A stretch of 64,000 nt of DNA from Nitrosopumilus sp. (GTDB lineage: Archaea; Thermoproteota; Nitrososphaeria; Nitrososphaerales; Nitrosopumilaceae), in the NCBI GenBank assembly GCA_965238275.1, contig OZ250186.1:1056001-1120000 (forward strand), written 5' to 3'. The position numbers and the translations under genes are program-made. Positions 4,601 through 20,766 of the stretch are shown here, piece by piece. The notes beneath the pieces were generated by a model that did not search any database, was not told the DNA's origin, and saw only the letters and a list, made by a program, of their open reading frames with translations. The stretch's first letter is position 1; each line of letters begins with the position of its first letter.

Positions 4601-6502
4601 TGTGAACGGAGTTCCAATCGTTATGGTTGGAATGATGTGGGATGCGGCTGTAACCGAGAGGTTGTCTTCGTTGAGTGAGTTGGTGTTGGCGTCACTGTCT
4701 GTCAGCGTTATGCCGATGTTCTCGCCAGAGTTCCATTCGTCTCCTGCGTCGATCACGATGTTGGTCTCGCCGAAGCCTATGGAGGATGTCGTGGTGTTGT
4801 CATATGTGACTGAAAATGACAGTCCCCTGTCGGCCCCTGTGGTGGTGCGTATGTTTGGCGTGTCGCCTGGTGCGTTGGTGAATACTGAGTCGTTTGAGCT
4901 ATCCTCGCTGAATTCTATCAAGAATTCGCCGGTGCTGCTTACGCTACAGGATTCAACACACTCTACCAAAGCGACGTTGCCGTTGTTGTTTGTGGAGAGG
5001 CTAAAGCCTTCGTCGGTTGAAACCTTGATTCCGCCACCATCCACATCTGCATCGATTGTAGGTGCAGCAGCGACAGCATCAGTATGGGCCTGAGTTGCGG
5101 TCGCAAGGTCAGCGGTGTATTCTGTATGTGCAGAACCTTCTACGTTGCCACCTGGGCCGTCTCCTGCGATTACCTCGTAGGCTACCTGTGCGGTACCCTT
5201 GTAGGCAACACTAGTGATCTCAGTTTCTGTCTTGTCTCCATTAACTGTGGCGTAGTTTGCATCAGCTATACCACTTGCAACAGTGGCATCATCAGTACCA
5301 GAAGGATAGGTAAATCCATTGTCCGAACCATAGTGAGTATTAAGATCGTCGTCGACAGCACTTACATATCCTGATGGAGCCACGGTGATGTCACCGATTG
5401 GTTGGAATCCGGCGATTACCTCGTATTCTATCTGTGCGATGCCCTTGTAATCGGCTACCTGCACAGCAGTAGGAGGATCGTCAAAGTCGATGGTTTTGTC
5501 TCCAAGGATTGATTGTGCGCGTGCCGCTTGTTCCAAGGGTACGGTGGGGTCGTCAACGACCTCATTGGCCCTCGTAATGAGAAGGTCTCTCTTATCAACT
5601 GCAGCAGCAATGGCAGTAGCCGGAACTGCTGCGGCGATCTTGGCGTCTCTGTCTGTTACGGCTTCAGCGATCTTGGTGTCTCTGTCTGTTACGGCCTTGG
5701 CATTGGCGGTCGTTCTGTCTGCTCCGGCCATAGCTAGGGCTTCAGCGTTAGCAGCAGTGCTTGAAACAGATGCCGGAATACCTCTGTAGTATGAGGTTCC
5801 ATCACTGCCCAAGTACCAAACATCGTCAGATGTTGGGTCCACGTTGAGTGCCAAGTCGTCAAGCGTGATGATCACGCCTGTACCTTGCGGGTATAGCGAC
5901 CTGTCGAGGCTTGCGCTCTCAGACGGATCGTCAAGATCCAAGACTACCGTCTGAGGGTTTGCCGGTTTCTCGTAAACTATGTCGAATGTGCCGTCGTCCA
6001 GGTTAAGGACTTGGACGAGTTGGGCAGGTGCATTATCAGTTGCAAAGGCAGGTTCGCCCATGACAAGGTTATTAATAGCTGTCTGTTCTGCTTCTGTGAT
6101 TTCAGCATCACCGTCACCATCAACAGTTTCAGTACCACTGACGATACCATCCATATCCGTCTCAAGCTGGACAATTAAGCCAGTGTTTTGGATGCCTGCG
6201 GATGCAATGTATGCATACCATGCGCCAGAGAAGAAGGCCATTTCAATGTCAGCGCCGTCAACGGTCACCCGAAGTTCATCACCTGACTCGTTTACGTCGC
6301 CGTCAGAAACCACGATCTCTACGATGTTGGTAGTGGCAATCACGTTGCCCGTGTTTAGTAGCTCAGCTGAAACCGCCAAGTGTGGGTTGCTTAATCCTGC
6401 TGCGTGTGCCGGCTCCATGCCGGGTATGGCAAACGTGAGTCCGCCTGCCACCATAATCGTCATCAGTGCTATGCTTGTAAGTTTTCGTAAGTTGTTGTTT
6501 AT
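1667..6502 (-). CDS. slaA: Thaumarchaeal S-layer protein (SlaA-like, ~1610 aa); probable ATA start at 6502, first ATG at 6463
   Basis: N-terminus (I)NNNLRKLTSIALMTIMVAGGLTFAIPG; acidic Ig-like repeats with ETG..TG.F motifs; C-terminus FVWESIDNPTALSP typical of Nitrosopumilaceae S-layer proteins. Confidence 0.9.
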   Translation of the reverse strand: MNNNLRKLTSIALMTIMVAGGLTFAIPGMEPAHAAGLSNPHLAVSAELLNTGNVIATTNIVEIVVSDGDVNESGDELRVTVDGADIEMAFFSGAWYAYIASAGIQNTGLIVQLETDMDGIVSGTETVDGDGDAEITEAEQTAINNLVMGEPAFATDNAPAQLVQVLNLDDGTFDIVYEKPANPQTVVLDLDDPSESASLDRSLYPQGTGVIITLDDLALNVDPTSDDVWYLGSDGTSYYRGIPASVSSTAANAEALAMAGADRTTANAKAVTDRDTKIAEAVTDRDAKIAAAVPATAIAAAVDKRDLLITRANEVVDDPTVPLEQAARAQSILGDKTIDFDDPPTAVQVADYKGIAQIEYEVIAGFQPIGDITVAPSGYVSAVDDDLNTHYGSDNGFTYPSGTDDATVASGIADANYATVNGDKTETEITSVAYKGTAQVAYEVIAGDGPGGNVEGSAHTEYTADLATATQAHTDAVAAAPTIDADVDGGGIKVSTDEGFSLSTNNNGNVALVECVESCSVSSTGEFLIEFSEDSSNDSVFTNAPGDTPNIRTTTGADRGLSFSVTYDNTTTSSIGFGETNIVIDAGDEWNSGENIGITLTDSDANTNSLNEDNLSVTAASHIIPTITIGTPFTLGGDDNGRVAASSSGSAEGTLVIPDGTFEGVHMLNYDVSALGSGASVSINGIGVTVDRDGRDLVDVTGHIGSDNTVNIRYSGTASDGMIVIDVFSFGLIDGTDNVNNAIYRLELEEKSDNSSDFTGTLEYIGLNQVNILDATTYAAIQAIDVDIILISDDDSVSVDYLDKDANGQDTLFTAEADTPTHSGAVSLDSDGYKVADTVTVTVEDADLNVDSGKPDVYTTIASDIVGAETSNEDIGELLSVSIDGNQWAAGCTDMTGLDATDFTLKETGDATGVFTGTFAVPADYCHPNGKSAGVTGADISVEYIDFRDDSGSTITVSDSAGIRSNTGSVSLDRTVYPVPIGIVTEAEDDTAFETFGADLLQHDLTVYVSISDSDFDTSSNGIDSTDPGVLEISIIRGSETLKWTVEDAIDETAPNSGVFEHTETISYNTGPDSSDCPPGLDGCIVQGDILHVQYTDPSDASGSLNTVTDSATFDLRNGVLQVDRPGTTGYVIGSDMIVTLIEQDLNLDSDATETYTLDLIEWDSDAGTCSLKSTGCTTDPFGATPSNLLETGTDTGIFQVVITVPPEIDDEALQRGEEITLTYNDWGPSGSDYVGDKDEEITAVAYTSDFGASIELDQKVYTWTDKVYITIVAPDHNFDADQVDEIGGQDADYPINIKTQEAEIEGYKLVETGADTGIFSGELILTGVEHDDLDRETKDSSGYGPTDGQLAAEDSDGLAVVFENSDGDIVRASAIIQWNVGEVEWLEASYPALGSGIVRVIDPDMNLNPEAVDNFDVNVWSDSDVGGISLTVTETNAATGIFEGTVFFDDSSISSGHRLNVEEGDTVVAEYDDVTSPIEDETSVSATTLIGTIVPPLERAPINNLRAVDTFDNSIGAASVGQQVVITADLSNGQDRDQKFIFLIQVQDENGVTVSLNWVLGTLAAGQSFSPGASWTPTEAGTYDVTAFVWESIDNPTALSPTATIALTVN
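5634..5699. repeat. 33-bp tandem repeat x2 within the S-layer gene (AVTDRD[T/A]KIA)
   Basis: gcgatcttggcgtctctgtctgttacggcttca / gcgatcttggtgtctctgtctgttacggccttg. Confidence 0.85.
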
Positions 6503-6738: not shown

Positions 6739-6975
6739 TCAAGGATTTGCAGCAGGCAAGGCATTCACTGCATCTTTCTGTTCTGCATCATACAATGCAT
6801 CAAAGTAAAACTTGTTGATCTCCATGGTTTCAAGTTTTTTTCTTCACATAGCTTTCGCTTAAAGTGGGAGTGTTCAGATCCACAAACACTTCCAATTCCA
6901 AACTTGGCTGGTTGAACAGTGCGATGTTCTCTGTCGCCTTCCACATCTGATAACCCAGACGATTCAGAACACGTA
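6739..6975 (-). pseudogene. 3' remnant of a small HicA-fold-like gene, 5' end lost at IS630, frameshift in an A7 run
   Basis: Reads RVLNRLGYQMWKATENIALF...VFVDLNTPTLSESYVKKK, then LETMEINKFYFDALY if one A is removed at 6835-6841. The catalytic His is not seen. Confidence 0.35.
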
Positions 6976-8243
6976 TACCAGCAATGAAAAATTCATATCA
7001 AAATCGCTCATAAATTTTTGATGCAACAGCCGTCTCTGGAAATTACGAGGTACGTTGAATTCCCAAATGACGAGAAAAGACGCTCCAAACATTAGACATT
7101 GCATGCTCTGGTGCGCCGTGCATGGCACACGCTAGGCGGCGTGGGTCCGGTGTGGTTTGATGTCGTTCTAGATGGCCCTGTACAGAAAGTTTTCAACGAC
7201 CAGATTCGGTTTTTTGTACCTCGTGTACCTGGTGATCGCCTCGCGGAGCATGCGCAGGCTGGTGTACTGCACGTCAAGCACTGCCCGTTTGAGATCCCTC
7301 CAGTACGTCTCTATGGCGCTCAGGTCCGGGGTTGCAGTCGGCAGGAAGACTATCTCCAGGCCGTCTGTGCCATCAAGCAGTTTGCGTATGTTTGATGCCC
7401 TGTGCTGGGAGGCCTTGTCCATGATCAGGCAGATCTTCTTGAACCTGTACATCGCCTGCCTTAGAAAGTCCTCAAAGGTGTCCTTGGTAAACGCATCGTA
7501 CTGCCGGAACATTCCCCTGCCGTCCGTGGTGATCAGGCCGTAGAGTATCGTCTTGGAGTGTGAGCCGGTGTACGTGAAAAACGCCCGTATTCCCTTCCTG
7601 GTGTAGCCGCGTCTTCGCGGCCGCGCATCGGAGATTACTATGGACTCGTCCTGTATCGCTACGACTGTTCCTTCACTGTTCTTTTTTTATAAGATCCGGC
7701 ATCTCTTTTTGGAATTTCCTGATCTCCTCGTCAGGTGCCCTTGCATGTTTTCCTACGGGAACCTTCTGGGAGTAGCCCCAGCTCCGCAGCATGTACCGCA
7801 CGTGCGTGAGGTTGTACTTTACCCCCGTCTTCTGCCTGATGTATTCCCGCATCTCCCTGCCCGTCCAGATCAGCTTACTGCGCGCGTTTTTCCGAATCCG
7901 CCCCATGTCTGCCCTGCTTACCTTGGTCGGCCTGCCGGAGCGCGGAAGGTTTCCCAGCCTGTCAAAGCCGACTTCCCGATAGCGTTTGTGCCACTTGCAG
8001 CCCCACGCCGGCGACTTGCCAAGGGATTTTGCAGCATCGCTCATGGCTGCTCCATCGCGCTTGATCATGATTATCAGCATCATGCGATCCTTGACATTGC
8101 AGTCTTTCTCAGCGGCGTATCTTTTCAACATCGTCTTGATCTTCATTGACTATGTGATTCGGGATGAGCATAGAACTGCATGCGAAAAAAATCTTTTACA
8201 ATCGTATGAAATATTTTTATTCACGGATTTATGTTCCGCGGTA
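6976..8243 (-). mobile_element. IS630-family element, chimeric copy
   Basis: Ends TACC...GGTA flanked by TA (6974-75, 8244-45). The 3' part is near-identical to 10088-11342; orfA is diverged. Confidence 0.9.
7168..8146 (-). CDS. IS630 transposase, split orfA (HTH) / orfB (DDE); slippery site here is A7G rather than A8G
   Basis: QDES, IMDKASQH, PDLSAIETYW motifs; orfA 7673-8146. Confidence 0.75.
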
Positions 8244-8633: not shown

Positions 8634-8724
8634 ATGCTGTTGCTGTTGCTGATCGTGTGTGGCTACAAAGAGCCGCCCGAGCCCCCACCGCCGGTGCTAC
8701 CCTGAGTCAATTCTGGGAAGACTG
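8634..8724. repeat. ~90-bp imperfect direct repeat, copy A (copy B at 19069-19153)
   Basis: gctgatcgt.t.tggctacaaagagc.gcc.gagccccc.ccgccggtgctaccctgag...ttctgggaagactg is shared by both copies. Confidence 0.85.
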
Positions 8725-9753
8725 CATAAGGTTACTGTTTTTGTACATTTCTATGGGAGTCTTGTAGATGGAGTTAATTTTTCTAAACACTTCTTTGTAA
8801 CAATCCAAATTGTTCGCACGTAGAGTTGCGTAGCATATCAAAATCCATCCAATCTGTTTCCAATATTCATCATCAAACCGATCCACCTTTTCTAAAAACT
8901 GACTGAAATCCACCTTCGGTGATGACATCACGGTTGTCCTGACAAACGCCTCAAGCTCATTCACTTTTCCTAATGCCAAATCTATGTCGTCGGAAGGCAT
9001 TGGACACATGCAGCAAGAGTTCGTTCTATCCTTTAATACTTTGTCAACCAATTCTCTGTCGTTCTCGTAAAAATGACAGCTTCCGCAGAAATGGTAATAA
9101 TTCCCCAACTCAAGCTCCAGTTTTGACTCCAGCACCGCCTTTACGTATTCCTGTAGCATCGTAAAGAGAAACACGTCATACGGAAATAACCTAAATGCAT
9201 TCTGACTCCGCATGTACGTTATTGCATGAAGTTTTTTATCTCTGATCAGGTACTGCAGATTCAACGTACATGGAACCTCATCTGCTAGCTGGTGTTGGTC
9301 AAATTGAGGTAGGTAGACTGACGCCACGGCCCTGCGCTTATTGTGGTCCGTGCTCAAAACATTTATCGCATGCTGGATCTGATTCATATGCTGTATTCCG
9401 AAGAGTCGAGGTCCGTATGCGCCAATCATGCGCGACCCGTCGGATGAATGCCTGTCCGATGATGGGGCGTAATATGTAATTTCTTTTGTATTGAAGCTTC
9501 CGCGATACGTCCAGAGAAACTGTCCCACAAGCTGAAAGATGTTTGGAGTGTATTCCTTTACTGTCACTATGCGCGACAGAGGATCCTTCATCTCAAATTT
9601 GTAGGATATGATTTCTTGATAATCTGGTTTGCATTTATGGCATGAAAGATGTTCGGACACGTTGTTCGAACATGTATGTTTTTCACACCTGCGCGATACG
9701 GGCTTCCCGTCTTTTATGATGTCATTGAGTAGTCGTTTCCACTCCGTTATCAT
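8707..9753 (-). CDS. Thymidylate synthase-superfamily enzyme, dCMP/CMP hydroxymethylase-like (348 aa)
   Basis: YGPRL, RRAV, VPCTLNLQYLIRDKKLHAITYMRSQN, FPYD (Asp where ThyA has Asn177), GSCHFYE. Confidence 0.85.
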   Translation of the reverse strand: MITEWKRLLNDIIKDGKPVSRRCEKHTCSNNVSEHLSCHKCKPDYQEIISYKFEMKDPLSRIVTVKEYTPNIFQLVGQFLWTYRGSFNTKEITYYAPSSDRHSSDGSRMIGAYGPRLFGIQHMNQIQHAINVLSTDHNKRRAVASVYLPQFDQHQLADEVPCTLNLQYLIRDKKLHAITYMRSQNAFRLFPYDVFLFTMLQEYVKAVLESKLELELGNYYHFCGSCHFYENDRELVDKVLKDRTNSCCMCPMPSDDIDLALGKVNELEAFVRTTVMSSPKVDFSQFLEKVDRFDDEYWKQIGWILICYATLRANNLDCYKEVFRKINSIYKTPIEMYKNSNLMQSSQN

Positions 9754-10087
9754 CGGGCACTCCTCTTCCGAAGAACTGCTTTTTTTGCAGTTCTCCTATG
9801 ACGTCAATTACCAAACGTGTATGGAAACGTTTCACACCAAACGACATATCGTCTATCAGATTGTCTATGATCTCAGGTAACGGACGCTTGGAATAATTTT
9901 TCTTCCACAGATATATCAGTGACGCGGCAACCTCCAGCCATTTTGGGTCATCGAGATTGGCTTTGAGTGCTTGCTTAAATTCTCGAATCTTTGTCTCTGC
10001 GCCTTCGGATAACGCTGACGGTTCGGGTTCAAATGTGTGTCCGTAGGCATCTTTGGTCACTTCCTTACAGTAAGGCCCGTGTATGTA

Positions 10088-11342
10088 TACCAGCAATGAA
10101 AAATTCATATCAAAATCGCTCATAAATTTTTGATGCAACAGCCGTCTCTGGAAATTACGAGGTGCGTTGAATTCCCAAATGACGAGAAAAGACGCCCCGA
10201 ACATTAGACATTGCATGCTCTGGTGCGCCGTGCATGGCACACGCTAGGCGGCGTGGGTCCGGTGCGGTTTGATGTCGTTCTAGATGGCCCTGTACAGAAA
10301 GTTTTCAACGACCAGATTCGGTTTTTTGTACCTCGTGTACCTGGTGATCGCCTCGCGGAGCATGCTCAGGCTGGTGTACGGCACGTCAAGCACTGCCCGC
10401 TTGAGATCCCTCCAGTACGTCTCTATGGCGCTCAGGTCCGGGGTTGCAGTTGGCAGGAAGACTATCTCCAGGCCGTCTGTGCCATCAAGCAGTTTGCGTA
10501 TGTTTGATGCCCTGTGCTGGGAGGCCTTGTCCATGATCAGGCAGATCTTCTTGAACCTGTACATCGTCTGCCTTAGAAAGTCCTCAAAGGTGTCCTTGGT
10601 AAACGCATCGTACTGCCGGAACATGCCCCTGCCGTCCGTGGTGATCAGTCCGTGGATTATCGTCTTGGAGTGCGAGCCGGTGTACGTGAAAAACGCCCGT
10701 ATTCCCTTCCTGGTGTAGCCGCGTCTTCGCGGCCGCGCATCGGAGATTACTATGGACTCGTCCTGTATCGCTACGACTGTTCCTTCGCTGTTCTTTTTTT
10801 TATAAGCTCTGGCATCTCTTTTTGGAATTTCCTGATCTCCTCGTCAGGCGCCCTTCTTGCATGTTTTCCTACGGGAACCTTCTGGGAATAGCCCCACCCG
10901 CGCAGTATCTGGCGCACATATCCGAGTTCGTACCTTACTCCGGTCTTCTGTTGGATGTATTGCTGCATCTCCATGCCCGTCCAGACAGGTTTCCTGCATG
11001 CGGCCTTTCTGATCTTCTTCATGTCTGCCTTGCTCGCCTTGGTCGGCCTGCCGGAACGCGGCATGTTTCCCAGCCTGTCAAATCCGACTTCCAGGTAGCG
11101 CTCGTGCCACTTGTAGCCCCACGAGGCTGACTTTCCCAGGGATTTTGCAGAATCCCTCATGGTTATCCCGTCACGTTTGACTCTGATGATCAGCATCATG
11201 CGGTCCTTGGTATCGCAGTCTGTCTCAGCGGCGTATCTTTTCAACATCGTCTTGATCTTCATTGACTATGCTACGTGAAATAAGCATAATTTCACATGGA
11301 GTTAAAATATTTTACAATCACATCAATTTTTCATCTTTGGTA
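10088..11342 (-). mobile_element. IS630-family element, apparently intact (1255 bp)
   Basis: TA duplication at 10086-87 / 11343-44; its removal restores the host ORF in frame. Confidence 0.95.
10280..11262 (-). CDS. IS630 transposase, orfA+orfB joined by -1 frameshift at A8G (10793-10801)
   Basis: A -1 shift gives ...IKKKNSEGTVVAIQDESIV..., continuing into orfB with the DDE residues. Confidence 0.85.
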
Positions 11343-11522
11343 TACCAACTGTATGTATAACCAAGGTCTACGCCATATTCTTGCAACAGGTATATGGTCT
11401 TCTGAATCTTTAGCCGATCATCGAACTCGTCAACAACAACAATTTTCTCTTTATCCATACATTTAAACACGTCTGCGACTGCTTTGCGTTCAGGCATGCA
11501 TCTTGTAGTTATGCCATAGTTA

Positions 11523-13290
11523 GTAATTGTTTCGCTTTTTGAAGTGCCCGAATGACCTAGCGGTCATCCATGGCGCTGGGAAGAAATCTAATAATTTCGT
11601 GCTCGGGACGACAAAGTTAGATCATCATGATCCAAGTATGAGTGGGTGTTAGTCCCTTCGATTACCACAATGAAGGAACCAACACACCAAACATGCTTGG
11701 AGGCGGAGGAATTTAAGGCAATGCACGAACCCTCCTCCTCCTCCTCGCCCCAAATCTCGCCAGACGCCGGGGCGTGCATGGAACCCGGATGCAGGTGCTG
11801 CCGGCACTGGGCCAAGATGTTCGGCTCCATGATCGTCCATACTCGCAAGATCCTGGAGACAGTCTGCGAGATTGCAGGCGAGTCAGACGCAGGCCGGAAG
11901 GAGATCGGGGGCCTGCAGGCGCTCGCCTCATCCCTCACGGAGGACAACAAGAGGTACGCCAAGGCAAACAGGGAGCTCAACGTCAAGGCAAACAAGATCA
12001 GCGTACCTGCGGCCAAGAAAAAGGCCGGCCCGAGAAAGGCCGGCAGGCCCAAGGGGCAGAAGCCCACCGTCAACTGCAGGCCAGAACGCGTGGACCGCGT
12101 GGAGGAGATCGACTGCAAAGAGTGCCCCGACTGTGGCGGCGGACTCTCGGGGGCGGTGACTGCCGAGTACGACCGCATGGTCACAGTCATGCGCGTCATC
12201 TCAGAGAACGTCAGGTATGTCATCAAGCGGCGCTGGTGCCGCGGGTGCAAAAAACAGGTCTCCGGGAGGGTCCCGGGCGCGGCAAAACACGCGCGCCGTT
12301 CGTCAAACTTTGATGCTGCCATGACGTCCCTGAACATGGGCGGCATGTCGCATGCCAGGGCCGCAGAATTTGGCAGTGACGCGTTAAAGCATGAAATCTC
12401 GCGCTCGTCTGCCTACCGCGGCAAGATCGAGCAGGCCGGGCGCATGGCACCGGAGCGTGATTCCGTGAAAGAACGCGTGCTGGAGGCGCCGCACCTGAAC
12501 GCAGACGAGTTCCACTTGCCGCTGGCCGGCAAGCGCGGCTACGGGATAGTGGCCCTGGCAAAAAACCACTGCCTCGTGAAGGTGGCCGGCTCGCGAAACA
12601 TCAAGACGCTCTGCCAAACGCTCCCGGACTACCGGGGAACCATAACGCAGGACTCGTATCCCGGGTGGCTCCACGTGGGATCGTGCCGCCAGATGTGCGT
12701 GTGGCACCAAGAGCGCCTGGTGCAAAAGGATCTCCTGACCAACCCCGGGGGCGACGTCCCGGCGTTCCTGGGCAGGCTGTCGGCAATCCACAAGAAGATC
12801 TATCGCGCCTCCAGAATCAGGGACGGTCACTCAAGGATCGTCGCGGCCCGCTGCATAGACTCCGAGCTGCGCGAGCTGATGAGCGAACAGTTTACAGACG
12901 ACAGACACGGCATCATCACCCGGCACAAGAAGAGGAACCCCCGGGAGGGATACTTTATGACCACCTGCCTGCACGTGGACGGCGTCAATCCCGACAACAA
13001 CTCAGTCGAGAGGGTCAACCGGAGGTTCGTGGCCATAAGGAGTGACGGGGGCGGAAACCGCTCCCAGAAGGGCATGGATGCCAACTCGATCCTGTTCACG
13101 CTGCTGGCAACGGACAGGATCAACGGGAACAGCTTCTTTGATCACCTGATTCGCTCGTCCTCCGGATACGGGTGACGCGCAATCCTACGACGCGCGCAGC
13201 GCATCACGGGGGGAAAAATTCCACGGTAAAAGGGGAAGACTGCACGCGCTCCACTGTCAGGCAGGTCACTTCAAAAAGCGAAACAATTAC
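11523..13290 (+). mobile_element. IS66-family element (single-ORF type)
   Basis: 24-bp perfect TIR GTAATTGTTTCGCTTTTTGAAGTG; 8-bp TSD CATAGTTA (11515-22, 13291-98). Confidence 0.95.
11670..13175 (+). CDS. IS66 transposase (TnpC-like)
   Basis: CPDCGG/CRGC zinc finger, ADEF, QDSY, QMCVWH, PDNNSVER motifs. Confidence 0.9.
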   Translation: MKEPTHQTCLEAEEFKAMHEPSSSSSPQISPDAGACMEPGCRCCRHWAKMFGSMIVHTRKILETVCEIAGESDAGRKEIGGLQALASSLTEDNKRYAKANRELNVKANKISVPAAKKKAGPRKAGRPKGQKPTVNCRPERVDRVEEIDCKECPDCGGGLSGAVTAEYDRMVTVMRVISENVRYVIKRRWCRGCKKQVSGRVPGAAKHARRSSNFDAAMTSLNMGGMSHARAAEFGSDALKHEISRSSAYRGKIEQAGRMAPERDSVKERVLEAPHLNADEFHLPLAGKRGYGIVALAKNHCLVKVAGSRNIKTLCQTLPDYRGTITQDSYPGWLHVGSCRQMCVWHQERLVQKDLLTNPGGDVPAFLGRLSAIHKKIYRASRIRDGHSRIVAARCIDSELRELMSEQFTDDRHGIITRHKKRNPREGYFMTTCLHVDGVNPDNNSVERVNRRFVAIRSDGGGNRSQKGMDANSILFTLLATDRINGNSFFDHLIRSSSGYG

Positions 13291-13323
13291 CATAGTTATA
13301 TGTTCTACCGTCGTCACTAACGC

Positions 13324-13842
13324 GTGAGAACTCTTCCGGATCATGTGAGGCCTGGTTTGACTGCCGTATTTGTGGGAACCAATCCGGGTTTGCGATCGGC
13401 ACGGATTGGTCACTACTTTGCTGGAAGAAACAATATGTTCTGGAAGCTTTTATACGAGGCCGGATTTACCAGAAAGCGTCTTTCCACAGAATCTGACTCT
13501 ACTATGCTTGACTATGGATACGGTCTTACTGACGTGGTGAAAAAACCGACACGTTCCACCACGAACCTAAAGGGTAGAGACGGCGACGGCGCCAAGGCGC
13601 GTCTGGATGCAATAATCTGCAAAAACGAGCCAAAAGCCGTGGTGTTTGTCGGCAAGACCGGCTTCCGGTTTTATACTAGCAACAAGGATCCGCTACACTA
13701 CGGCGCACAGAACCTAAAGATCGAAAACTCAGATGTGTTTCTAATGCCGTCTACTAGCGGAGCCAGTTTTGCAGACACCAAATATGACGAAAAGCTTTAC
13801 TGGTACTGCAAGCTACGGCGCTCCATTGACAATTATGCTTAG
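13324..13842 (+). CDS. mug: G/U mismatch-specific DNA glycosylase (UDG family 2, MUG/TDG)
   Basis: VFVGTNPG, GHYFAG..N.FW, GLTDVV, MPSTSG; GTG start with TTATAT ~25 nt upstream. Confidence 0.9.
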   Translation: MRTLPDHVRPGLTAVFVGTNPGLRSARIGHYFAGRNNMFWKLLYEAGFTRKRLSTESDSTMLDYGYGLTDVVKKPTRSTTNLKGRDGDGAKARLDAIICKNEPKAVVFVGKTGFRFYTSNKDPLHYGAQNLKIENSDVFLMPSTSGASFADTKYDEKLYWYCKLRRSIDNYA

Positions 13843-13967: not shown

Positions 13968-15507
13968 AACACATGTATAATCCACCCATTTTGTTGGTTT
14001 GGGCCATAAAACCGAAAAAATACGGTTTAATGTTGATCATGCCAAGCACACGGCGAACTTATTCATCCCAAAATCCAAAACAACATGCGCAGTCTTGCAG
14101 CACTTCATCGTGCCCTGAATTCTACTTGACCGGAGCTTGGGAGCAGGCCCTGTCCCAGTCTACTGACGTCTTCCACTGCCCCGGTGGTGGCGGGCCCTTT
14201 TCCATGCAGTCCCACAAAAGGTTCAGGTTTACCAGCCCTGTGATCACGTTGAACTCCCTGTTGAACCCGGCTGCGTTGCCGTCGTACGGGTCGGTGAGGC
14301 GCGCGTAGCGCTTGAGCCTGCCTATCGTGTGCTCCACCAACACCCGGGTGGAGTTGATCCCGTGGTTGTGCTTTTTTTGCTCCGGCGTCAGCGGCGTGTC
14401 CCTGGTCTTCTTGTGCGGGATCTCCGGCGTGGTGCCGGGCAGGTGGTCTGCGATTCCCTGGTAGCCGCGGTCGACGAATGGGTGGCACCTGTCTGATTCT
14501 GGCAGGTCCGGATCGTGCATCGCCTTCTCCCACTTTCCAAACGGCATGGGGCGTTCCTTGAGCAGCGTGATGTCGCCGACTGACCCGACGGTGCTTTTTG
14601 ATATGCCGATCACCACCCCGTTCCGGTTGGTGTACACGTTGGTATTGTTGGTAAACTTTTTCTTCTTGCCGGAGTATTTCATGCGCCGGACTGACTTTAC
14701 GGACGGGCGCTGTATGGGGCAGTGCGTGCCGTCTATGAAGATCTCGCCCCCATCCGATCCGGGCACGATCTTCTTGAAATCCTCCTTGGTCGGGGCAGCA
14801 GCTACCTCCTCGGATATGTTGTCTGCCGTCGGAAGTATTCCTGTCAGCATCGCATCCATCACCGGAATGTACCGGGACACGGTGGTCTGGTCTATCCCGA
14901 AGAATGCGGCAAGCACGCCTTGGGCGGGGTTGTCCTTTTTGCGGATAAGTGCTAGGAGCAGTGCGTGCCTCAGGTGCAGCTTGCACCGGTTTCCGGGATC
15001 GGAGGCCCGGGATGCGTTATCGCAGAACAGCGGCATCTGGCCCGAATGCGTCAGAAACACCTTGGCCCGCTCCAGCATGTACCGGAACTGTTCCCCGTCT
15101 GCCAGCGTGGCATGGCGGAGCTTGTCCCCGTCGCGTATTATGTCGTCTAGCACCTCTAGCAGGTGCAACGCTGGCCCCTTGCCGGGGTTCCAGCCATCGT
15201 CCCTGCTCTTCCACAGGCCGCGCTCAAGGCCCAGCTCCCTGTCTTTCTGCTCCAGCTTTTTGTCTTTCTGCTTTAGAATATTTTTTAGGGTTTTGTCTTT
15301 CTGTTCCAGCTTTTTGTCTTTCTGTTCCAGCTTTTTGTCTTTCTGTTCCAGCTTTTTGTCTTTCTGCTTTAGAATATTTTTTAGGCTTCTGTTTTCCTGT
15401 TCCAATCTGTGCATGATCTGATCAGGCGAGTCTGGCATTTGATGTGAGACGCGATCGTGCCTGATCTAAATTTATCGATGTGAACAGGGGGATTACGCAT
15501 ATTTTCT
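13966..15507 (-). mobile_element. IS5-family element (DDE_Tnp_4 / ISL2-like), copy 1
   Basis: Imperfect TIR AGAA..TATGCGTAATCC; AAT on both flanks; homologous to 55724-57320. Confidence 0.85.
14122..15438 (-). CDS. Transposase (DDE_Tnp_4) with N-terminal LEQKDKK heptad repeats
   Basis: IDGT, YSGKKK, VDRGYQG, RVLVEHTIGRLK. Confidence 0.9.
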   Translation of the reverse strand: MPDSPDQIMHRLEQENRSLKNILKQKDKKLEQKDKKLEQKDKKLEQKDKTLKNILKQKDKKLEQKDRELGLERGLWKSRDDGWNPGKGPALHLLEVLDDIIRDGDKLRHATLADGEQFRYMLERAKVFLTHSGQMPLFCDNASRASDPGNRCKLHLRHALLLALIRKKDNPAQGVLAAFFGIDQTTVSRYIPVMDAMLTGILPTADNISEEVAAAPTKEDFKKIVPGSDGGEIFIDGTHCPIQRPSVKSVRRMKYSGKKKKFTNNTNVYTNRNGVVIGISKSTVGSVGDITLLKERPMPFGKWEKAMHDPDLPESDRCHPFVDRGYQGIADHLPGTTPEIPHKKTRDTPLTPEQKKHNHGINSTRVLVEHTIGRLKRYARLTDPYDGNAAGFNREFNVITGLVNLNLLWDCMEKGPPPPGQWKTSVDWDRACSQAPVK

Positions 15508-15855: not shown

Positions 15856-17537
15856 AGATCCTATGCAGAATGTGCCTGACGTGGCAAATCATAAAATCAT
15901 GTCAGAACTGCGCTAGCCGTGGCCATATTTGAAAATCTCGTCTGCCGTATATTTTACAAATTTGTCTTGCACGTCCATGTGAAAAATCCAGTTTCCAGTA
16001 TTGGAAAATAAGGCACGTTCTGTGGATGTGCGGCATCCGTCCCCGGGGCGGCAGGTTGTTTCATGGGGAATGGTGGGGGAATTTGCACAAATATTGGATG
16101 CCGTGCGCGACATTCCTGCACTGCCTGATGCCACCTGCCTTTCACTCCGTCAGGCGGCTCGTGCCGCCCTGTCTCAGAGGCGCGCCCTTTTTTCGGCCAG
16201 CCTTTTGAGAAGGTCCGCGTCCCTGAGTTTTATTTCGTCCCACATCAGATCCTGGTTTACCATTCCCGCAATCGCGTTGAGCTCGTCGTTGTACTCCTCC
16301 TCGGTGCCGTCGTACGGGTCAGTCAGCCTCTTGTACTGTTTCAGGCTTCCGATAACGTGCTCTATGGCCACGCGGGAGCTGTTTACCCTCTTGTTGTAGG
16401 CGCGCTGCTTCTTTGTCAGGCCGCCGGTCTTTTTGTCGGCTCCACGCTTTTTCTTGTGCGGGTGCCTGATGTGCCATCCGGGATATTCCTCTCTTGTCCC
16501 TTGGTAGCCCTTGTCCATCAGGACGTCAGGCTTTTCTTTTTCGGGCACGTCCTTCTGGCCCATCCTTGCCGTAATGATTCCAAGGTTTGGCGGATCCTCG
16601 TTGAGCAGGGTCTTGTCGTGGACGCTGCCCGGAACGGTCTTGCTTATCGCCACTATCACGCGGCGCTTGTTGATCACGATGTTGGTATTGTACGTGTGCG
16701 CCTTCTTCTTGCCAGAGTACGTCCTTTTGCGTCTCTCCTTGTCCGCGGACCTTCTGACCCGGTTGTGCGTGCCGTCCACCATCAGTTCTCCTCCCCTCCT
16801 GCCGGGTATTATCTTCTTGCTCTCCTCGAGTGTCTTGGCCTTTTGTACAGCCTCGCTGATTTTGCGCGGCGCCGTGCCTGTCTCGCCGAGCAGCCTGGTC
16901 ATCAACGGGAGATACCTGGAGACGGTGGCCTGGTCGACGCCAAACATCGCGGCAAGGGCTTCCTGCGGCATGCTCAGCCTTGTCCGAAACAGCCACAGCA
17001 GGTACGCGTGCCTCAGGGGCAGGATGCGCCTGCTCCCGGAGTTTTTCGATCTGTTCTCGATTTCCCGGAAGAGCGCAGTCTCCCCGTTCCGCTCCAAAAG
17101 ATCCTCGAGGCGGTGCAGCGTGTGGCCAAACTTTTCCGGGGTGCGCAGCGTCATGGCGTGCAGGAATTCAGGATATTTTATGATGTCGTCGAGAAACCTC
17201 GACGTGACGGTCCAGTGATCAGTCAGGCGTTCCTCGAGGGCCTCGCTCTTCTGCCGGTCTGTCCTGCGTGCTTCCCTGAGGGCCCTGATCCTCTGCCGGC
17301 AGGATTCATCCGACTCCCTGAGCGCCTCGTTTTCCTGCCGTAATCTCTGCACCGTTGGATCGACTAGCATTGCCATCACGGTGTGGCGTAAAAATCACCG
17401 ATCTTAACGTTTCGGTTATCCTTCTTGGATTGGCATGCTTTACGATTCTGTGGATATTCGGCCGCATGTGGTGCCGCACGTGGGAATAACCCAATTTAAT
17501 TCAGTTTTTTAAATCAGGCACATTCTGCATGAGATCT
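15856..17537 (-). mobile_element. IS5-family element (DDE_Tnp_4), second subtype; flanks do not match
   Basis: TIR AGATC(CT/TC)ATGCAGAATGTGCCTGA at both ends. Confidence 0.85.
16174..17376 (-). CDS. Transposase (DDE_Tnp_4)
   Basis: VDGT, YSGKKKAH, MDKGYQG, RVAIEHVIGSLK. Confidence 0.9.
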   Translation of the reverse strand: MAMLVDPTVQRLRQENEALRESDESCRQRIRALREARRTDRQKSEALEERLTDHWTVTSRFLDDIIKYPEFLHAMTLRTPEKFGHTLHRLEDLLERNGETALFREIENRSKNSGSRRILPLRHAYLLWLFRTRLSMPQEALAAMFGVDQATVSRYLPLMTRLLGETGTAPRKISEAVQKAKTLEESKKIIPGRRGGELMVDGTHNRVRRSADKERRKRTYSGKKKAHTYNTNIVINKRRVIVAISKTVPGSVHDKTLLNEDPPNLGIITARMGQKDVPEKEKPDVLMDKGYQGTREEYPGWHIRHPHKKKRGADKKTGGLTKKQRAYNKRVNSSRVAIEHVIGSLKQYKRLTDPYDGTEEEYNDELNAIAGMVNQDLMWDEIKLRDADLLKRLAEKRARL

Positions 17538-17604: not shown

Positions 17605-18815
17605 GGCGTTGTCCAAATCTTAGTTCTACAGACCCATTTGCTGTTCATTTACACACACTTTATTGGTTATGATTCCGTTAATTTGGAGGGATTTTCTGTG
17701 TCCGAAGCATAGCAGAATACATCGGGTGCCAGAACCGTGCCTGGAAGCATAGCACACGCTAGACACATGGCATGCATTCTTGCACCATGACATCACGACA
17801 GCAGGTTGTAACAGATGCACCTGAGCAATAACTGCAGCCTTTGGGTCGGCAGCGTCTTTGCTTGGACCACTGCGGTGAACCTGCACTTGAACGACGAGAA
17901 CACCGACTCTACTATGCTGCGGCGGTGGTACGTCGTTTCAAACTCTTCGGGGTTCTTTTCCTGCCACCTGATCATCTCTGCCCTCGGGCCGAATCCCTTT
18001 GCGACGTGGTTCTTGCGGGTGCATATGACCGGCTTCCTGCCCGCATCGCGGATCATCTTGTAGTTTTTGACTGCATCATACCCTGTATCAAGCATCACGC
18101 ACCCCGTGCCGTCCGGAACCTTCCCGAACATCTCCCTGAATACGGGAGAGTCGTGCGCGCGTCCCCTGGTGACTGCGCAGGAGACGATCTTTCTTCCCTT
18201 GACATCAGTCACCACATGCAGCTTGACGAATTCGCGTCTGGAGATGAGGCCCCTTTTGGCATCCTCCCAGTCTGCGTACTGGTTGATGGCGACCCCCGTG
18301 GAGTCTCCTAGGAGGGAACCGCGCGCGTAGGATCCTGCCTGCCGTTCTATTGTTTCGTGCAGCCAGTCATAATCTGCGATTATGGCAGATACATGGTGCA
18401 GGCAGGATTTTGATGGAACGGTTTTTAATCCATACATGTGCAACGTTCCCTGATGTGTCTGCAGGTATGAGACATGTTGACGGTATGAATGGCAGCGGAA
18501 CTCCCGGTCTGCAAGGCATACCATGTATGGGATCATACGCACATTGCCAGAAGTGGCAAGCGGGTAGATCTCAAGCAGCAGGGCGGTGAGGGCCTTGATC
18601 CGTAATCTGGTTGTGTGGCCTTCACCCCTTCTCCTTGTCTCGTATTCCTTGTAGTATCCGGCAGGACGTTCCCATTTCTTGGCGTCGGTGCTCTTGCTTT
18701 TGCATCGTTTCTTGCTCTTGCCGTGCTTCGTGTTTGTATCACGTTTTTTGTTCATTAAGCGGCGCGCGATCTTTAAGCTTTTCGTTGATTTTCGGTTCAA
18801 AGTTTGGACAACGCC
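17605..18815 (-). mobile_element. IS5-family element (IS903-like ends)
   Basis: TIR GGCGTTGTCCAAA; 9-bp TSD CCGGTTGGG (17596-604, 18816-24). Confidence 0.9.
17793..18800 (-). CDS. Transposase (DDE_Tnp_1 type)
   Basis: GDSTG, FVKLHV, LDTGYD, YHRRSIVESVFS. Confidence 0.9.
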   Translation of the reverse strand: MNRKSTKSLKIARRLMNKKRDTNTKHGKSKKRCKSKSTDAKKWERPAGYYKEYETRRRGEGHTTRLRIKALTALLLEIYPLATSGNVRMIPYMVCLADREFRCHSYRQHVSYLQTHQGTLHMYGLKTVPSKSCLHHVSAIIADYDWLHETIERQAGSYARGSLLGDSTGVAINQYADWEDAKRGLISRREFVKLHVVTDVKGRKIVSCAVTRGRAHDSPVFREMFGKVPDGTGCVMLDTGYDAVKNYKMIRDAGRKPVICTRKNHVAKGFGPRAEMIRWQEKNPEEFETTYHRRSIVESVFSSFKCRFTAVVQAKTLPTQRLQLLLRCICYNLLS

Positions 18816-19220: not shown

Positions 19221-20501
19221 TTACTTTTGCAAATCAATCATCGCTTTCTTGCACCGTTCCTGGAAGGCGCGCATCCTGTCTCTCTCTGTCAGGGAATCCA
19301 GTAACTGTTCCCGCAGGCGTTCTATCTCCTGCTCGGCATTGTAGAGCCTGACCCGCAGGGTCTGGACGTCGTCACCATCATCATTCCGGTCAAGGGCGTG
19401 TCCTGAATTGGTCAGGACGTTGATCCTGCTTGATGCCTTTGCATACTCCCGGCGCAGCGTATCCGGGTATAGGGCGGGTTTTTCATACGAGTCCTTTGGC
19501 TTGTGCCCGAGGATAAAGTCGGCCACGTACTGCGCGCACCCGCAGTCCATCAGGGTAGTCTTTAGCAGGTCCCGGAGCTCATGCGCCCGTATCTTGTACG
19601 TATTCCTCGACGTTTTTTTCTGCAGCCCGGCGGCGACGGCCAGCTTGCCCATGCTTACTGATACCCACGTGCTCTTGATGGGCCTGCCCAGCTTGTTGAG
19701 GAACAGCGGGCCGTTGGCATCAAAACCCCCGTACTCCCGGACGCGCCAGTCAAGGTAGTTCCGTATTGCGGTAATGGCATCCCTGTCCAGAAATGTGATA
19801 AACTGCACCCCGGTCTTCATCCGCACCAGCTTGATTGGGACGGGGCACCTGCCTGGATCCCATTTGGCGTGGTCTGTTGACCCGAAATGCCTGGATATCT
19901 GGGAATAAGCCTCAAAGTTGAACCTGTCTGCAAGGGTGGACGAGTCCAGCCCGGCCTGGAACTTTACCAGCATGACTGCGTTCAGCATGACAGACGGCCG
20001 TCCCCGTGTCAGCATCTGGCACCATTCATGCAGCGTCAGCCTGCTGTCTTCTTTTGTCTCCTGGGTCTCGTGGCGCTTGGGGTCGTATTTCATTCCCACC
20101 GGGGACTCGTTCTTGGCAAAATACGACATGATGGCGCAAAATATGTTGTTCATGGTGCTTGGGCTCGACCCCCCGTGTATCGGGTCGTTGAGGTACGTCC
20201 TGATGATTCTTATGACTACCTTCCCGGGTATGGTGGAGTTATCAAACATGGTCAGGAGCTGCTCGACGTTTTCGAGCCTGGTCTCGAGGATTCGCTCCTC
20301 CAGCGTCCGGTCACCCGTCTTGACGTTCCGTCTGATAGTAAAGGATTGGCCGGGTAGCCATTGGTTAAATCTGGCAAGGTTATACACGTACAGGGTGCGG
20401 GTGCTGTTGCTGCTTGACGGCATTGATATGTTCCTGTACCGGTTCCCGCGCAGTTGGCTTGTCCAGTATTTCACGCTTTGGAGGTCGTCCAGCCGGGACA
20501 T
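19221..20501 (-). CDS. Tyrosine recombinase/integrase with C-terminal coiled coil (upstream ATGs at 20612 and 20744 possible)
   Basis: RMKTG, PLF, HELR, LGH and DSY motifs; box I reads AGLDSSTL (no Arg). Confidence 0.85.
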   Translation of the reverse strand: MSRLDDLQSVKYWTSQLRGNRYRNISMPSSSNSTRTLYVYNLARFNQWLPGQSFTIRRNVKTGDRTLEERILETRLENVEQLLTMFDNSTIPGKVVIRIIRTYLNDPIHGGSSPSTMNNIFCAIMSYFAKNESPVGMKYDPKRHETQETKEDSRLTLHEWCQMLTRGRPSVMLNAVMLVKFQAGLDSSTLADRFNFEAYSQISRHFGSTDHAKWDPGRCPVPIKLVRMKTGVQFITFLDRDAITAIRNYLDWRVREYGGFDANGPLFLNKLGRPIKSTWVSVSMGKLAVAAGLQKKTSRNTYKIRAHELRDLLKTTLMDCGCAQYVADFILGHKPKDSYEKPALYPDTLRREYAKASSRINVLTNSGHALDRNDDGDDVQTLRVRLYNAEQEIERLREQLLDSLTERDRMRAFQERCKKAMIDLQK

Positions 20502-20766
20502 TTTTTGGGACTTGATTTTTTTGATTATGCCGCGTTTCTGCGCAATGATGGCGGCCCGGTAGTGGTAGTTGACAAACGCAACAGTCGAGCACGACTTGGG
20601 CTTGTTGGGCATGTTCCTCCTGATTATGTCGATTATGACGAAATGCGTTCCGACATCCTTGAACTTGGATACTATGCTCGCAAATCTTTTGGGCACCCCG
20701 ATCAGCTTGTCCGGCGTGGGATCATGGCATACCACGTATTGCATGCAAACGTGACAAATGCTTTAG

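Follow-up and report, generated by a model that had tools for sequence, protein, structure and literature searches.

An archaeal gene cassette joining a predicted dCMP-modifying thymidylate synthase homologue to MUG/TDG-family glycosylases and a small protein with a modelled antitoxin-like fold

Why would an ammonia-oxidizing archaeon encode a thymidylate synthase (TS) homologue with the residues of a dCMP-modifying enzyme, and why should the gene stand beside that of a DNA glycosylase? The question is raised by a 64,000-nucleotide stretch of a Nitrosopumilus sp. genome (contig OZ250186.1, positions 1,056,001 to 1,120,000), hereafter the window, in which positions 8707 to 13842 hold a TS-like enzyme gene, a small gene broken by an insertion sequence (IS) of the IS630 family, an IS66 element, and a mug gene (Table 1). 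A first-pass annotation of the letters had proposed that these genes are the remains of a new system consisting of a Panacea/YwgA-like gene, a dCMP hydroxymethylase-like enzyme, and a divergent MUG glycosylase. In this study, we established that the three genes belong together in other genomes, assigned a probable substrate to the enzyme, and found an antitoxin-like fold in the model of the small protein. The reading that we favour, tentatively and at somewhat under an even chance, is that the cassette is a conflict module, either toxin-antitoxin-like or antiviral, that would act through modified deoxycytidylate with a logic like that of DarTG.

The original layout of the locus can be recovered by removing the two elements. 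When IS630 was cut out by script with one copy of its TA duplication, the two pieces of the small gene rejoined into a single open frame of 172 aa with zero internal stops, whose junction reads ...SWYIHGPY... and which scores 159 bits against a hidden Markov model (HMM) of intact homologues. The stop of this gene (9722) and the start of the TS-like gene (9753) overlap by 32 nt. IS66 is bounded on either side by the 8-bp direct repeat CATAGTTA, and excision of both elements leaves a 2.1-kb unit in which the small-gene ATG (11497) and the mug GTG (13324) stand head to head, 50 bp apart. This is the arrangement that the first-pass annotation had deduced, namely a unit of about 2.1 kb with a 172-aa gene overlapping a 348-aa TS homologue and mug about 50 bp away, and it occurs in nature. 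A public 1626-nt contig from a different study, with about 97% identity to the window, connects the TS gene to mug by way of an uninterrupted small gene; it skips exactly from 10085 to 11343 (ends TA..TA) and from 11513 to 13290, the latter joint having 171 nt on its shorter side and 9 letters that fit both sides. Because this contig joins across both insertion sites, an IS-free form exists in a related strain. An IS630-free joint in another public run has just 28 nt on one side, and as this falls below the 31-nt rule of the tool, the order of insertion that it suggests, IS66 first and IS630 second, is a hint.

The trio also holds together well outside this genome. A scan of genome contigs with a single window protein returned zero relatives, whereas a word-index search found about 70 clusters of full-length enzyme relatives at 40-68% identity, one of them named from a Nitrosarchaeum metagenome-assembled genome (MAG); pattern scans with the alignment of these relatives fetched 56 genome, 80 metagenome, and 2 viral loci. 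All six-frame open reading frames (ORFs) of the fetched loci were searched with HMMs of the three proteins. A TS homologue score of at least 284 bits was taken as the clade boundary, and 38 loci passed it: 29 from metagenomes, 8 from Nitrosopumilaceae genomes, and 1 from a haloarchaeal MAG. All of them but one include a MUG gene (37 of 38; the exception is a 1.6-kb contig that ends within the TS gene). The homologues of the other 100 loci score lower and are mostly bacterial and MilA-like, and neither a MUG nor a small-protein gene was found beside any of them. In the Nitrosopumilaceae-type clade, the enzyme gene is directly preceded by the small gene at all eight genome loci and at 14 of the 18 metagenome loci; at the remaining four the contig has no sequence upstream. 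The order of the genes is shared by the eight genome loci and the metagenome loci. These counts correspond to about 25 distinct examples, as some metagenome loci duplicate genome loci and a second clade contains near-identical copies. The trio is a conserved unit, beyond a chance neighbourhood, and to this extent the proposal of the first-pass annotation stands. However, the unit is larger elsewhere than the three genes that it saw, with a second MUG paralogue (MUG-B) and often a DNPH1-like N-hydrolase. Fuller cassettes are ordered as MUG-A (on either strand), an optional gene of 115-152 aa, an optional gene of 172-366 aa, the small gene, the TS-like gene, and MUG-B, which is convergent and has a 3' end that overlaps or abuts that of the TS-like gene.

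Within its lineage the cassette is rare. A search of 36 genomes of the same genus with the window protein as query did not find the TS-like gene, and 24 further genomes of the order gave one weak match (E 2e-7) with an internal stop; with the family profile, 401 genomes of the order yielded five carriers, one of which is the genome of the window. The flanks vary by locus. Symporter, alcohol dehydrogenase, and thioredoxin-like genes occur at many of them, and Swt1-like HEPN, AbiJ/HEPN, integrase, ResIII helicase, and IS630 transposase genes lie beside some copies. One public record holds two cassettes (L006 and L011) that are about 45% identical, one with Asn and the other with Asp at the position of ThyA residue 169; the Asn-type copy has no upstream MUG-A within 5.4 kb. 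Broken copies are those of the window and of L013, which is frameshifted. A 'stops inside' flag on other loci was not accepted as a sign of broken genes, as the counted stop was the gene's own terminal stop where this could be checked (L009). In pattern scans of viral contigs, which can miss relatives, the TS alignment gave 2 distant matches (34% identity) and the small-protein and MUG alignments gave none. We read the cassette as an accessory gene set that moves among ammonia-oxidizing archaea, and the window copy as a decayed one.

What the cassette might do depends first on its enzyme. The PF00303 match of the TS-like protein spans residues 50-245 (cut-off 24.3 bits), and a match to phrog_5131 at E 3e-34 extends over residues 53-332, the C-terminal extension included. 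Six NCBIfam TS models all score far below their cut-offs (e.g., 69.1 vs 174.55). Among solved structures the closest to it is MilA (E 1.9e-30), which acts as CMP 5-hydroxymethylase in mildiomycin synthesis; ordinary TS (E 1e-9) and T4 dCMP hydroxymethylase (E 1e-5) match more weakly. Published specificity positions were transferred to the window protein via HMMER alignments. The catalytic cysteine, Cys146 of ThyA, is Cys162. At the position of ThyA Asn177 stands Asp193, within F190-P191-Y192-D193, as the first-pass annotation had noted, and this residue is the determinant of a cytosine substrate (PMC5175136, PMC13326640). Glu159 takes the place of ThyA Leu143; an acidic residue here lets water in, so that the product is not methyl (PMC13326640). 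Ser183 and Arg140 occupy the columns of MilA Ala176 and Lys133' and form the deoxyribose-specific pair, and an A176S/K133R mutant of MilA changes its preference from CMP to dCMP (PMC5175136). The window enzyme has C162, D193, E159, S183, and R140, as expected of a dCMP C5-modifying TS of the T4 gp42 type, and these are invariant or nearly so in the family alignment. By contrast, it departs from housekeeping ThyA in Asp193 and Glu159, and from MilA-type CMP (ribo) enzymes in Arg140 and Ser183. Filing it as a CMP enzyme was rejected despite its top likeness to MilA, because the ribo determinants are absent. From these residues, the substrate is very probably dCMP and the product something other than 5-methyl-dCMP.

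Which modification is made may differ between clades. ThyA Asp169 corresponds to Asn185 of the window enzyme, and Asn at this position has been offered as diagnostic of flavin-dependent 5-hydroxy-dCMP synthases, a D169N signature that was checked on nine further natural D169N homologues (PMC13326640, 2026). Among the 38 MUG-linked loci the residue pattern is R-E-C-S-D-D in 30 and R-E-C-S-N-D, the window's type, in 8; among database homologues, 21 of 119 have Asn at the ThyA-169 position and the others Asp. In a quick IQ-TREE tree of 58 rows, which included 27 of the 119 database proteins and 8 outgroup loci, the Asn forms fell mostly into one clade with the window (14 of 15 rows, SH-aLRT 99), with at least 4 changes forced elsewhere; 16 truncated, frameshifted, or near-duplicate loci were left out (L013, L065, L066, L072, L075, L077-L081, L085-L087, L089, L090, and L092). 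By this signature, the copies of the window's clade would make 5-hydroxy-dCMP, and most of the others 5-hydroxymethyl-dCMP. For the window enzyme, the name dCMP hydroxymethylase-like in the first-pass annotation is right about the cytosine determinant, but Asn185 is the signature of a 5-hydroxy-dCMP synthase rather than of a hydroxymethylase.

The residue pattern also supports the view that the enzyme is not the housekeeping TS of its host. The thymidylate source of the host is ThyX, and the TS-like gene is the sole PF00303 match in the genome; of 60 relatives searched, 59 gave no match to it. The host ThyX is itself unusual in form, a protein of 549 aa with two ThyX domains in tandem (L002:1375-3024, outside the window). 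Two further observations concern the enzyme family at large. An N-terminal insertion at residues 23-46 (window 9616-9687) with the pattern C-x2-H...C-x2-C is common to the window enzyme and its five closest database relatives and absent from other family members, and it looks like a small zinc-binding knuckle. Among the bacterial MilA-like homologues (L014-L063, L093-L143), 78 of 101 rows read R-D-C-S-D-D, i.e., they have the deoxy-type Ser/Arg and not Ala/Lys, so these proteins may be dCMP rather than CMP enzymes.

The small protein was harder to classify. Pfam PF13274 (SocA_Panacea) gave no match for 4 intact homologues at E <= 1, for the two window fragments at E <= 0.01, or for any of 80 distant family members at E <= 0.01, and the whole of Pfam and NCBIfam gave zero families for the fragments and the 4 intact proteins. 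The hhalign probabilities against 9 true Panacea members from related genomes were 26% and 1.7%; against the most similar single member the value was 23% (P 9e-4, 39 columns). In the ESM Atlas the nearest clusters are unnamed, and the nearest named one, with PF13274 in 13% of its members at a score of 0.82, serves as a lead. The AlphaFold2 (AF2) model (pLDDT 92) found its best fold match in chain 7yk3_D, the C-terminal domain of Mycobacterium tuberculosis DarG in the DarTG complex, with a VIA-align Z of 10.8 (next row 4.6), a value to be read with the caveat that helical folds below Z 13 can match through a common arrangement. The superposition covers the whole small protein, with a root-mean-square deviation of 3.1 A over 139 residues and 13% identity, and Foldseek gives the same chain a probability of 1.00 (E 0.03, TM 0.59). 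In a profile search against PDB sequences, the best E was 0.034, to a designed repeat protein, and DarG followed at E 0.09 over the ...QK..Y...GPY motif. An R-G-P-Y motif is invariant or nearly so in the family. The Panacea/YwgA-like label of the first-pass annotation therefore fails as PF13274 membership by sequence but keeps some substance in the DarG-like fold, the QK...GPY motif, and a source label, 'uncharacterized protein YwgA', on one family member. In its model, the small protein folds like the toxin-sequestering DarG C-terminal domain, and that domain neutralizes DarT by sequestration (PMC7003065). In Panacea proteins a conserved GPV motif, regarded as their signature, is critical for neutralization (PMC8832971).

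A complex of two copies of the L012 enzyme with the L012 small protein was predicted with a score of 0.69 (0.68-0.70 in three runs) against 0.01 for the best of three controls; of the pairs used to calibrate the tool, 58 of 80 solved complexes attained its mark, as did 2 of 110 mismatched pairs, a calibration that is rough here because our own alignments and two copies of one chain were used. At least 88% of contacts are common to the runs, and the partner pLDDT is at least 86. The predicted interface involves the invariant W53/Y59 region and residues 114-121 and 138-141 of the small protein, and residues 104-118, 192-198, and the family-specific segment 242-250 of the enzyme. The model supports binding of the small protein to the TS-like enzyme. 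The wider family of the small protein, which is without a Pfam entry, comprises 1823 representative clusters at E <= 1e-3, 649 of them at 1e-10. It is carried by 59 of 301 genomes of the host's class, with up to 12 copies and some tandem arrays, such as those of four to five copies at G529:C1:779763-786381 and G094:C1:660765-663655. At 30 loci of relatives we found 5 with a downstream ParE-like toxin ORF, 1 with a PIN-domain gene, 4 with a winged-helix regulator, and 3 with a TS-like gene. Such behaviour is typical of toxin-antitoxin and defence genes.

The glycosylase of the window is similar over its whole length to E. coli MUG (E 6e-22) and human TDG (E 5e-19). Its score against NF007570 is 98.8 bits, under the equivalog cut-off of 144, and it is for this reason a divergent member of uracil-DNA glycosylase (UDG) family 2, in agreement with the first-pass annotation. 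It has the motifs GTNPG and MPSTSG and retains the catalytic Asn of that family, and with the upstream MUG of each of six Nitrosopumilaceae loci it shares 59-64% identity. The two paralogues of the fuller cassettes are divided at this very motif. All 16 upstream MUG-A copies read GTNPG, whereas the downstream MUG-B copies of the Nitrosopumilaceae-type clade read GTSPG (20 copies), GTRPG (1), or GTNPG (1, at a locus without an upstream copy in view), so that MUG-B as a rule lacks the catalytic Asn that defines family 2. The single MUG of the second clade (10 copies) reads GVNPG and keeps the Asn, and every cassette seen has at least one Asn-type MUG. In the window, a tblastn search with seven MUG-B proteins for a remnant matched just the one mug gene; 470 bp separate the TS stop from the next IS630 copy.

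With regard to what the glycosylases recognize, Asp is invariant in both paralogues (14 of 14 sequences) at the column of TDG Asn191 and E. coli Lys68. TDG Asn191 touches the Watson-Crick edge of the flipped base (PMC3488261). The Asn-to-Asp change at this base-contacting position parallels the N177D change of the enzyme and, in our reading, hints at a cytosine-type substrate. The same paper reports that TDG and E. coli MUG excise 5-hydroxymethyluracil (5hmU) or 5-carboxylcytosine (5caC) and not 5-hydroxymethylcytosine (5hmC), and it terms the TDG mutant N140A non-catalytic. A conservative prediction, by analogy, is that MUG-A excises deaminated products opposite G, and MUG-B, with Ser for Asn, may bind rather than cut. 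The host genome has two other UDG-superfamily genes elsewhere. As for the optional genes of the cassette, the 115-152-aa gene separates MUG-A from the small gene at 9 loci and is missing in the window. It belongs to PF05014, the nucleoside 2-deoxyribosyltransferase family, and its solved relatives include DNPH1/Rcl (E 4e-6; '5-hydroxymethyl-dUMP N-hydrolase' in several PDB entries) and a CMP N-glycosidase (E 1.4e-4). The further gene of 172-366 aa, seen in three cassettes (L071:3304-4404, L073:2703-3719, L068:168-686) between the DNPH1-like and the small gene, has no significant Pfam match, its sole hit being zf-HIT at E 0.055.

How could these parts work together? In the conflict module that we tentatively favour, the TS-like enzyme would be the effector, turning dCMP into a C5-modified dCMP that host kinases would phosphorylate and that would then enter replicating DNA. 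The 172-aa protein would bind the enzyme and keep it in check. At the DNA level, the Asn-type MUG/TDG-like glycosylase would remove the modified base or its deaminated uracil form. In fuller copies, the DNPH1-like enzyme, a predicted dNMP N-hydrolase, would destroy the modified mononucleotide, and the second MUG paralogue, without its catalytic Asn, would bind the lesion instead of cutting it. The scheme would amount to the writer, eraser, and sequestering domain of DarTG, with the writing shifted to the nucleotide pool. We favour it because of the antitoxin-like fold of the putative binder and the behaviour of its family, the patchy, mobile, multi-copy, and often decaying distribution of the cassette, and the apparent diversification of product type and glycosylase paralogues. 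Moreover, three of the four accessory proteins look as if they restrain or undo the product of the first, the binder acting on the enzyme, the N-hydrolase on the mononucleotide, and the glycosylase on the DNA base. There are precedents for the components of such a scheme: a DNA glycosylase serves as antiviral defence in Brig1 (PMC11078745), and a nucleotide-metabolism toxin is paired with a DNA-repair antitoxin in ShosTA. A bolder version, which we regard as rather unlikely, is that the cell possesses a cytosine-hypermodifying enzyme like those of phages, which an antitoxin-like binder locks. Release of the enzyme would flood the pool with 5-hydroxy- or 5-hydroxymethyl-dCMP, which would pass into the DNA of a fast-replicating invader, and the paired MUG/TDG-like proteins would destroy that DNA or clean the host genome; the Asp/Asn switch at ThyA-169 and the Asn/Ser split of the glycosylases would then be arms-race diversification.

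Several observations weigh against this interpretation. Sequence searches do not put the small protein in SocA_Panacea, and the small gene was not detected at the haloarchaeal locus or in the second clade, which has 11 loci at 55-60% G+C, although TS and MUG genes are present in both. The canonical TDG and MUG enzymes do not excise 5hmC, so that an eraser of modified cytosine would need an unusual activity. A kinase or dCTPase gene is not linked to the cassette, and the entry of the product into DNA is for that reason an assumption. The D169N rule comes from phage enzymes and is carried over here to a different family. The window copy has an intact TS-like ORF beside a putative antidote gene that is disrupted, which is awkward for a potent toxin unless IS66 had silenced the operon earlier. 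Finally, many of the flanking genes are ordinary housekeeping genes, and the best PADLOC matches of other genes (E 0.0075-0.026) are to unrelated AbiLi and Cas1 models.

The competing explanation with the most to be said for it, possible though on balance doubtful, is that the cassette modifies the DNA of its own cell or of a mobile element and brings along dedicated quality control. The enzyme would feed 5-hydroxymethyl- or 5-hydroxy-dCMP to the deoxynucleotide (dNTP) pool, so that the carrier DNA would contain modified cytosine, which might confer, for example, nuclease resistance; MUG-A would repair 5hmU:G or 5-hydroxyuracil:G (5hoU:G) as Vsr does beside Dcm, the DNPH1-like enzyme would clear deaminated or surplus modified dNMP, and the small protein would be a regulatory subunit. 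Much of the above agrees with this. A C5-modifying enzyme is tightly paired with a mismatch glycosylase, the human relative of the optional gene is the one named for 5-hydroxymethyl-dUMP in the PDB, integrase genes beside some copies would suit a mobile element that marks its own DNA, and the two other UDG-superfamily genes of the host cover ordinary uracil repair, which leaves the cassette MUG as an extra. Excision by TDG of 5hmU opposite G and not of 5hmC (PMC3488261) also fits repair by an Asn-type MUG. Indeed, this explanation and the conflict module share most of their sequence-level predictions. What speaks against self-modification is the rarity and patchiness of the gene (5 of 401 genomes of the order), the presence of two diverged copies in one record, and the broken copies of the window and L013. 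Furthermore, cytosine-replacing phages link a dCTPase or dNMP kinase, which is not the case here; the viral-contig scans gave only the two distant TS matches and none for the small protein or MUG; the same genome encodes a GmrSD-type nuclease, of a modification-dependent family; and an antitoxin-like binder with relatives beside ParE and PIN would be unexpected as a biosynthetic subunit.

The likeness to MilA, the closest solved relative, raises another possibility, that of a small-molecule pathway resembling those of mildiomycin and bacimethrin, in which the TS-like enzyme and the hydrolase would make free 5-hydroxymethyl- or 5-hydroxycytosine and the glycosylases would protect the producer's DNA. 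A PF05014 gene is indeed present at 9 loci, with a CMP N-glycosidase among its solved relatives, and MilA and MilB carry out the first two steps to free 5hmC (PMC4081090). However, the window lacks that gene, which is optional elsewhere too (9 of about 38 loci), the enzyme shows the deoxy-type Ser/Arg in place of the Ala/Lys of MilA and BcmA, methyltransferase, kinase, peptide-forming, and export genes are not conserved alongside, and the constant partner is a DNA glycosylase; we consider such a pathway improbable. If instead the glycosylases were the core, as a Brig1-like defence that excises modified cytosines from viral DNA, the enzyme and binder might sense or compete with viral nucleotide metabolism. 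UDG-superfamily glycosylases can be stand-alone antiviral genes (PMC11078745), and both the divergence of the MUG paralogues at the catalytic motif and their invariant Asp at the TDG Asn191 column would suit such a role. Yet it leaves an intact, conserved, and always-present TS-like enzyme without a role, and modified-cytosine viruses of these archaea are not known, the search having consisted of viral-contig scans with three cassette proteins, so that we regard it as distinctly improbable. There remains the view that the genes have no functional link and are neighbours by descent in a few related genomes. Many loci do come from one archaeal family, and kinship inflates the counts; but the TS-MUG pairing holds at 28-37% TS identity in the haloarchaeal locus and the high-GC soil clade, two settings that differ in flanks and in G+C (55-61% vs about 31%), and the internal order and overlapping 3' ends persist while the flanks vary. 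Absence of any link is highly improbable.

Comparison with known systems places the cassette between several of them. In the proposed scheme it would share with DarTG the writer of a lesion-like DNA mark, the eraser, and the sequestering domain, and the one clear fold match of the small protein is to DarG. In contrast to DarTG, where the enzymes are an ADP-ribosyltransferase and a macrodomain, those of the cassette have a TS fold and a UDG fold (the glycosylase), the writing would be done on a mononucleotide and not on DNA, eraser and binder are separate genes, and toxicity is hypothetical. With PanAT (PMC8832971) it has in common a small gene upstream of a varying partner that it abuts or overlaps, the QK...GP[VY] motif, predicted binding, and relatives beside ParE and PIN, but the small protein here is without a PF13274 match. 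The main text of the PanAT paper contains neither 'hydroxymethyl' nor 'YwgA' and has no instance of 'thymidylate synthase'. The enzyme belongs to the superfamily of phage T4 gp42, which makes 5-hydroxymethyl-dCMP, and of RB69 gp48 and DLP3 gp80, which make 5-hydroxy-dCMP (PMC13326640), and shares with them the catalytic Cys, N177D, and L143E, and in the window's clade also the D169N of the RB69 gp48 type. Unlike these phage enzymes, it is cell-encoded and linked to glycosylases and a binder, and not to glycosyltransferases, a kinase, or a dCTPase. As for the pairs MilA/MilB and BcmA/BcmB (bacimethrin), some cassettes include a MilB/DNPH1-family hydrolase beside the MilA-like enzyme, whereas Arg/Ser replace Lys133'/Ala176 and downstream antibiotic genes are absent.

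Two other parallels concern repair. Dcm-Vsr is a 5-methylcytosine methylase encoded beside the repair enzyme for its deamination product, and the cassette likewise couples a predicted cytosine C5-modification genetically to an enzyme for G-mismatched deaminated products; in contrast to Dcm-Vsr, the modification would be made at the nucleotide level and would not be sequence-specific, and the repair enzyme is a glycosylase and not an endonuclease. Human DNPH1-SMUG1 offers a similar combination of a modified pyrimidine dNMP, a DNPH1-type N-hydrolase that clears the pool, and a UDG-superfamily glycosylase that clears the DNA. In human cells, 5-hydroxymethyl-dUMP arises from salvage and not from a dedicated synthase. 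Brig1 (PMC11078745) resembles the cassette in being a UDG-superfamily glycosylase that acts on modified cytosine in a virus-host conflict and that is found in defence islands. However, it is a single gene with a best structural match to a Sulfolobus UDG and not to MUG/TDG, and it attacks a base made by the phage, whereas the enzyme predicted to produce the modified base here belongs to the cassette-bearing cell.

Table 1. Features of the cassette and its two insertion elements, in positions of the window
Feature	Position	Strand	Evidence
TS-superfamily enzyme gene, 348 aa, ORF intact	8707..9753	-	PF00303 at 59 bits
Small-gene 3' fragment (residues 53-172 and third base of codon Y52)	9722..10085	-	tblastn and HMM matches to intact homologues
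Left TA target-site duplication of IS630	10086..10087	.	Direct reading; public-contig joint 10085 to 11343, ends TA..TA
IS630-family element, 1255 bp	10088..11342	-	HTH_32/HTH_33 and DDE_3 domains, terminal inverted repeats
Right TA target-site duplication of IS630	11343..11344	.	Direct reading and public contigs
Small-gene 5' fragment (residues 1-51), with motif DDRLKIQKTIYLLQEYG...SW	11345..11497	-	tblastn matches to intact homologues
Left half of the 50-bp divergent intergenic region, with left CATAGTTA copy at 11515-11522	11498..11522	.	
IS66-family element, 1768 bp; 509-aa transposase ORF 11646-13175	11523..13290	+	PF03050 at 47.8 bits, inverted repeats
Right CATAGTTA copy (13291-13298) and right half of the intergenic region	13291..13323	.	
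MUG/TDG-family (UDG family 2) glycosylase, 172 aa, MUG-A type	13324..13842	+	PF03167 at 61.7 bits

The setting of the window copy is that of a genomic island. The host genome, a single 2.22-Mb contig, encodes archaeal AmoA, and McrA was not found in it, which makes the host an ammonia-oxidizing archaeon. The unit has a G+C content of 44.4% against 52.7% for the genome, within the lowest 1.7% of 2-kb windows, and near-full-length copies of IS630 (11) and IS66 (12) show that both are active families in this genome. The two elements at the locus are typical of their families. IS630 has a DDE_3 transposase with an N-terminal HTH, terminal inverted-repeat arms at 10085-10108 and 11322-11345, and a TA duplication, and over 300 nt it is 98% identical to the window copy at 6973-7272; IS66 has a DDE_Tnp_IS66 transposase, inverted repeats of 27 nt that are 96% complementary, and an 8-bp target duplication. 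The IS630 transposase frame is split into ORFs 10771-11262 and 10280-10624, the two frames switching near a T run (window ~10794-10803), and contigs of three public runs omit one base at 10794; this could be a slippery site or copy-to-copy variation. A TTATAT stretch, read by eye, lies about 25 nt upstream of the mug start, and in our reading the IS66 insertion would separate the small-gene operon from this stretch on the opposite strand. The window cassette is probably inactive in this genome, because the 50-bp promoter region that its divergent genes share is interrupted by IS66, its binder gene is split by IS630, and it has no MUG-B. In this host the unit is an acquired, dispensable, and decaying island gene set.

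Genes of mobile elements crowd the rest of the window (6973-8230, 14122-15438, 16174-17379, 17793-18800, 19221-20744, 23218-24276, 30609-31874, ~43630-44430, and 46007-47836). They include two further IS630 copies, a second IS66-type transposase, DDE_Tnp_4 and DDE_Tnp_1 transposases, an integrase-like ORF of 507 aa, an rve integrase, and an IS605 OrfB. At 61402-63213 (+) the window encodes a 603-aa GmrSD-type protein (GmrSD_N 131 bits, GmrSD_C 81 bits); the GmrSD family consists of modification-dependent (type IV) restriction enzymes, and this one shares the island-rich stretch with the predicted cytosine-modifying cassette. A 1598-aa ORF at 1667-6463 (-) matched zero Pfam families at E <= 1e-4.

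The first-pass annotation knew of no described system with this composition, and our searches agree. PADLOC-DB 2.0.0 (2023) has no family for the TS-like protein or the C-terminal fragment of the small protein and gave no significant match, and no published description of a module of TS-like enzyme, MUG, and small protein was found in the open full-text literature, a scope outside which subscription journals and supplementary tables lie. To our knowledge, the combination of parts has not been described before, whereas their kinds, toxin-antitoxin or defence modules and nucleotide-level cytosine hypermodification, are themselves known. TS enzymes that make 5-hydroxymethyl- or 5-hydroxy-dCMP are known from phages, which hide their DNA with the help of them. 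Here, the same predicted chemistry is encoded by cells, in ammonia-oxidizing archaea, one haloarchaeal MAG, and a soil clade, and is joined to glycosylases and an antitoxin-like binder.

Either of the two leading interpretations would have consequences for the biology of these archaea. If self-modification were true, archaea with modified cytosine made via the nucleotide pool and with a dedicated repair enzyme would be new. If the conflict module were true, a modified nucleotide would be used as a weapon with layered antidotes, and the 'write and erase' principle of DarTG would extend to the level of the dNTP pool. The cassette may also supply tools for study, in the form of compact glycosylases that possibly read 5-hydroxymethyl and 5-hydroxy pyrimidines and of a natural Asp/Asn series for the rule of product specificity. 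As the parts are small and intact natural copies exist, their function is directly testable. Beyond its own chemistry, the cassette provides an entry to a large Pfam-less family of antitoxin-like archaeal proteins.

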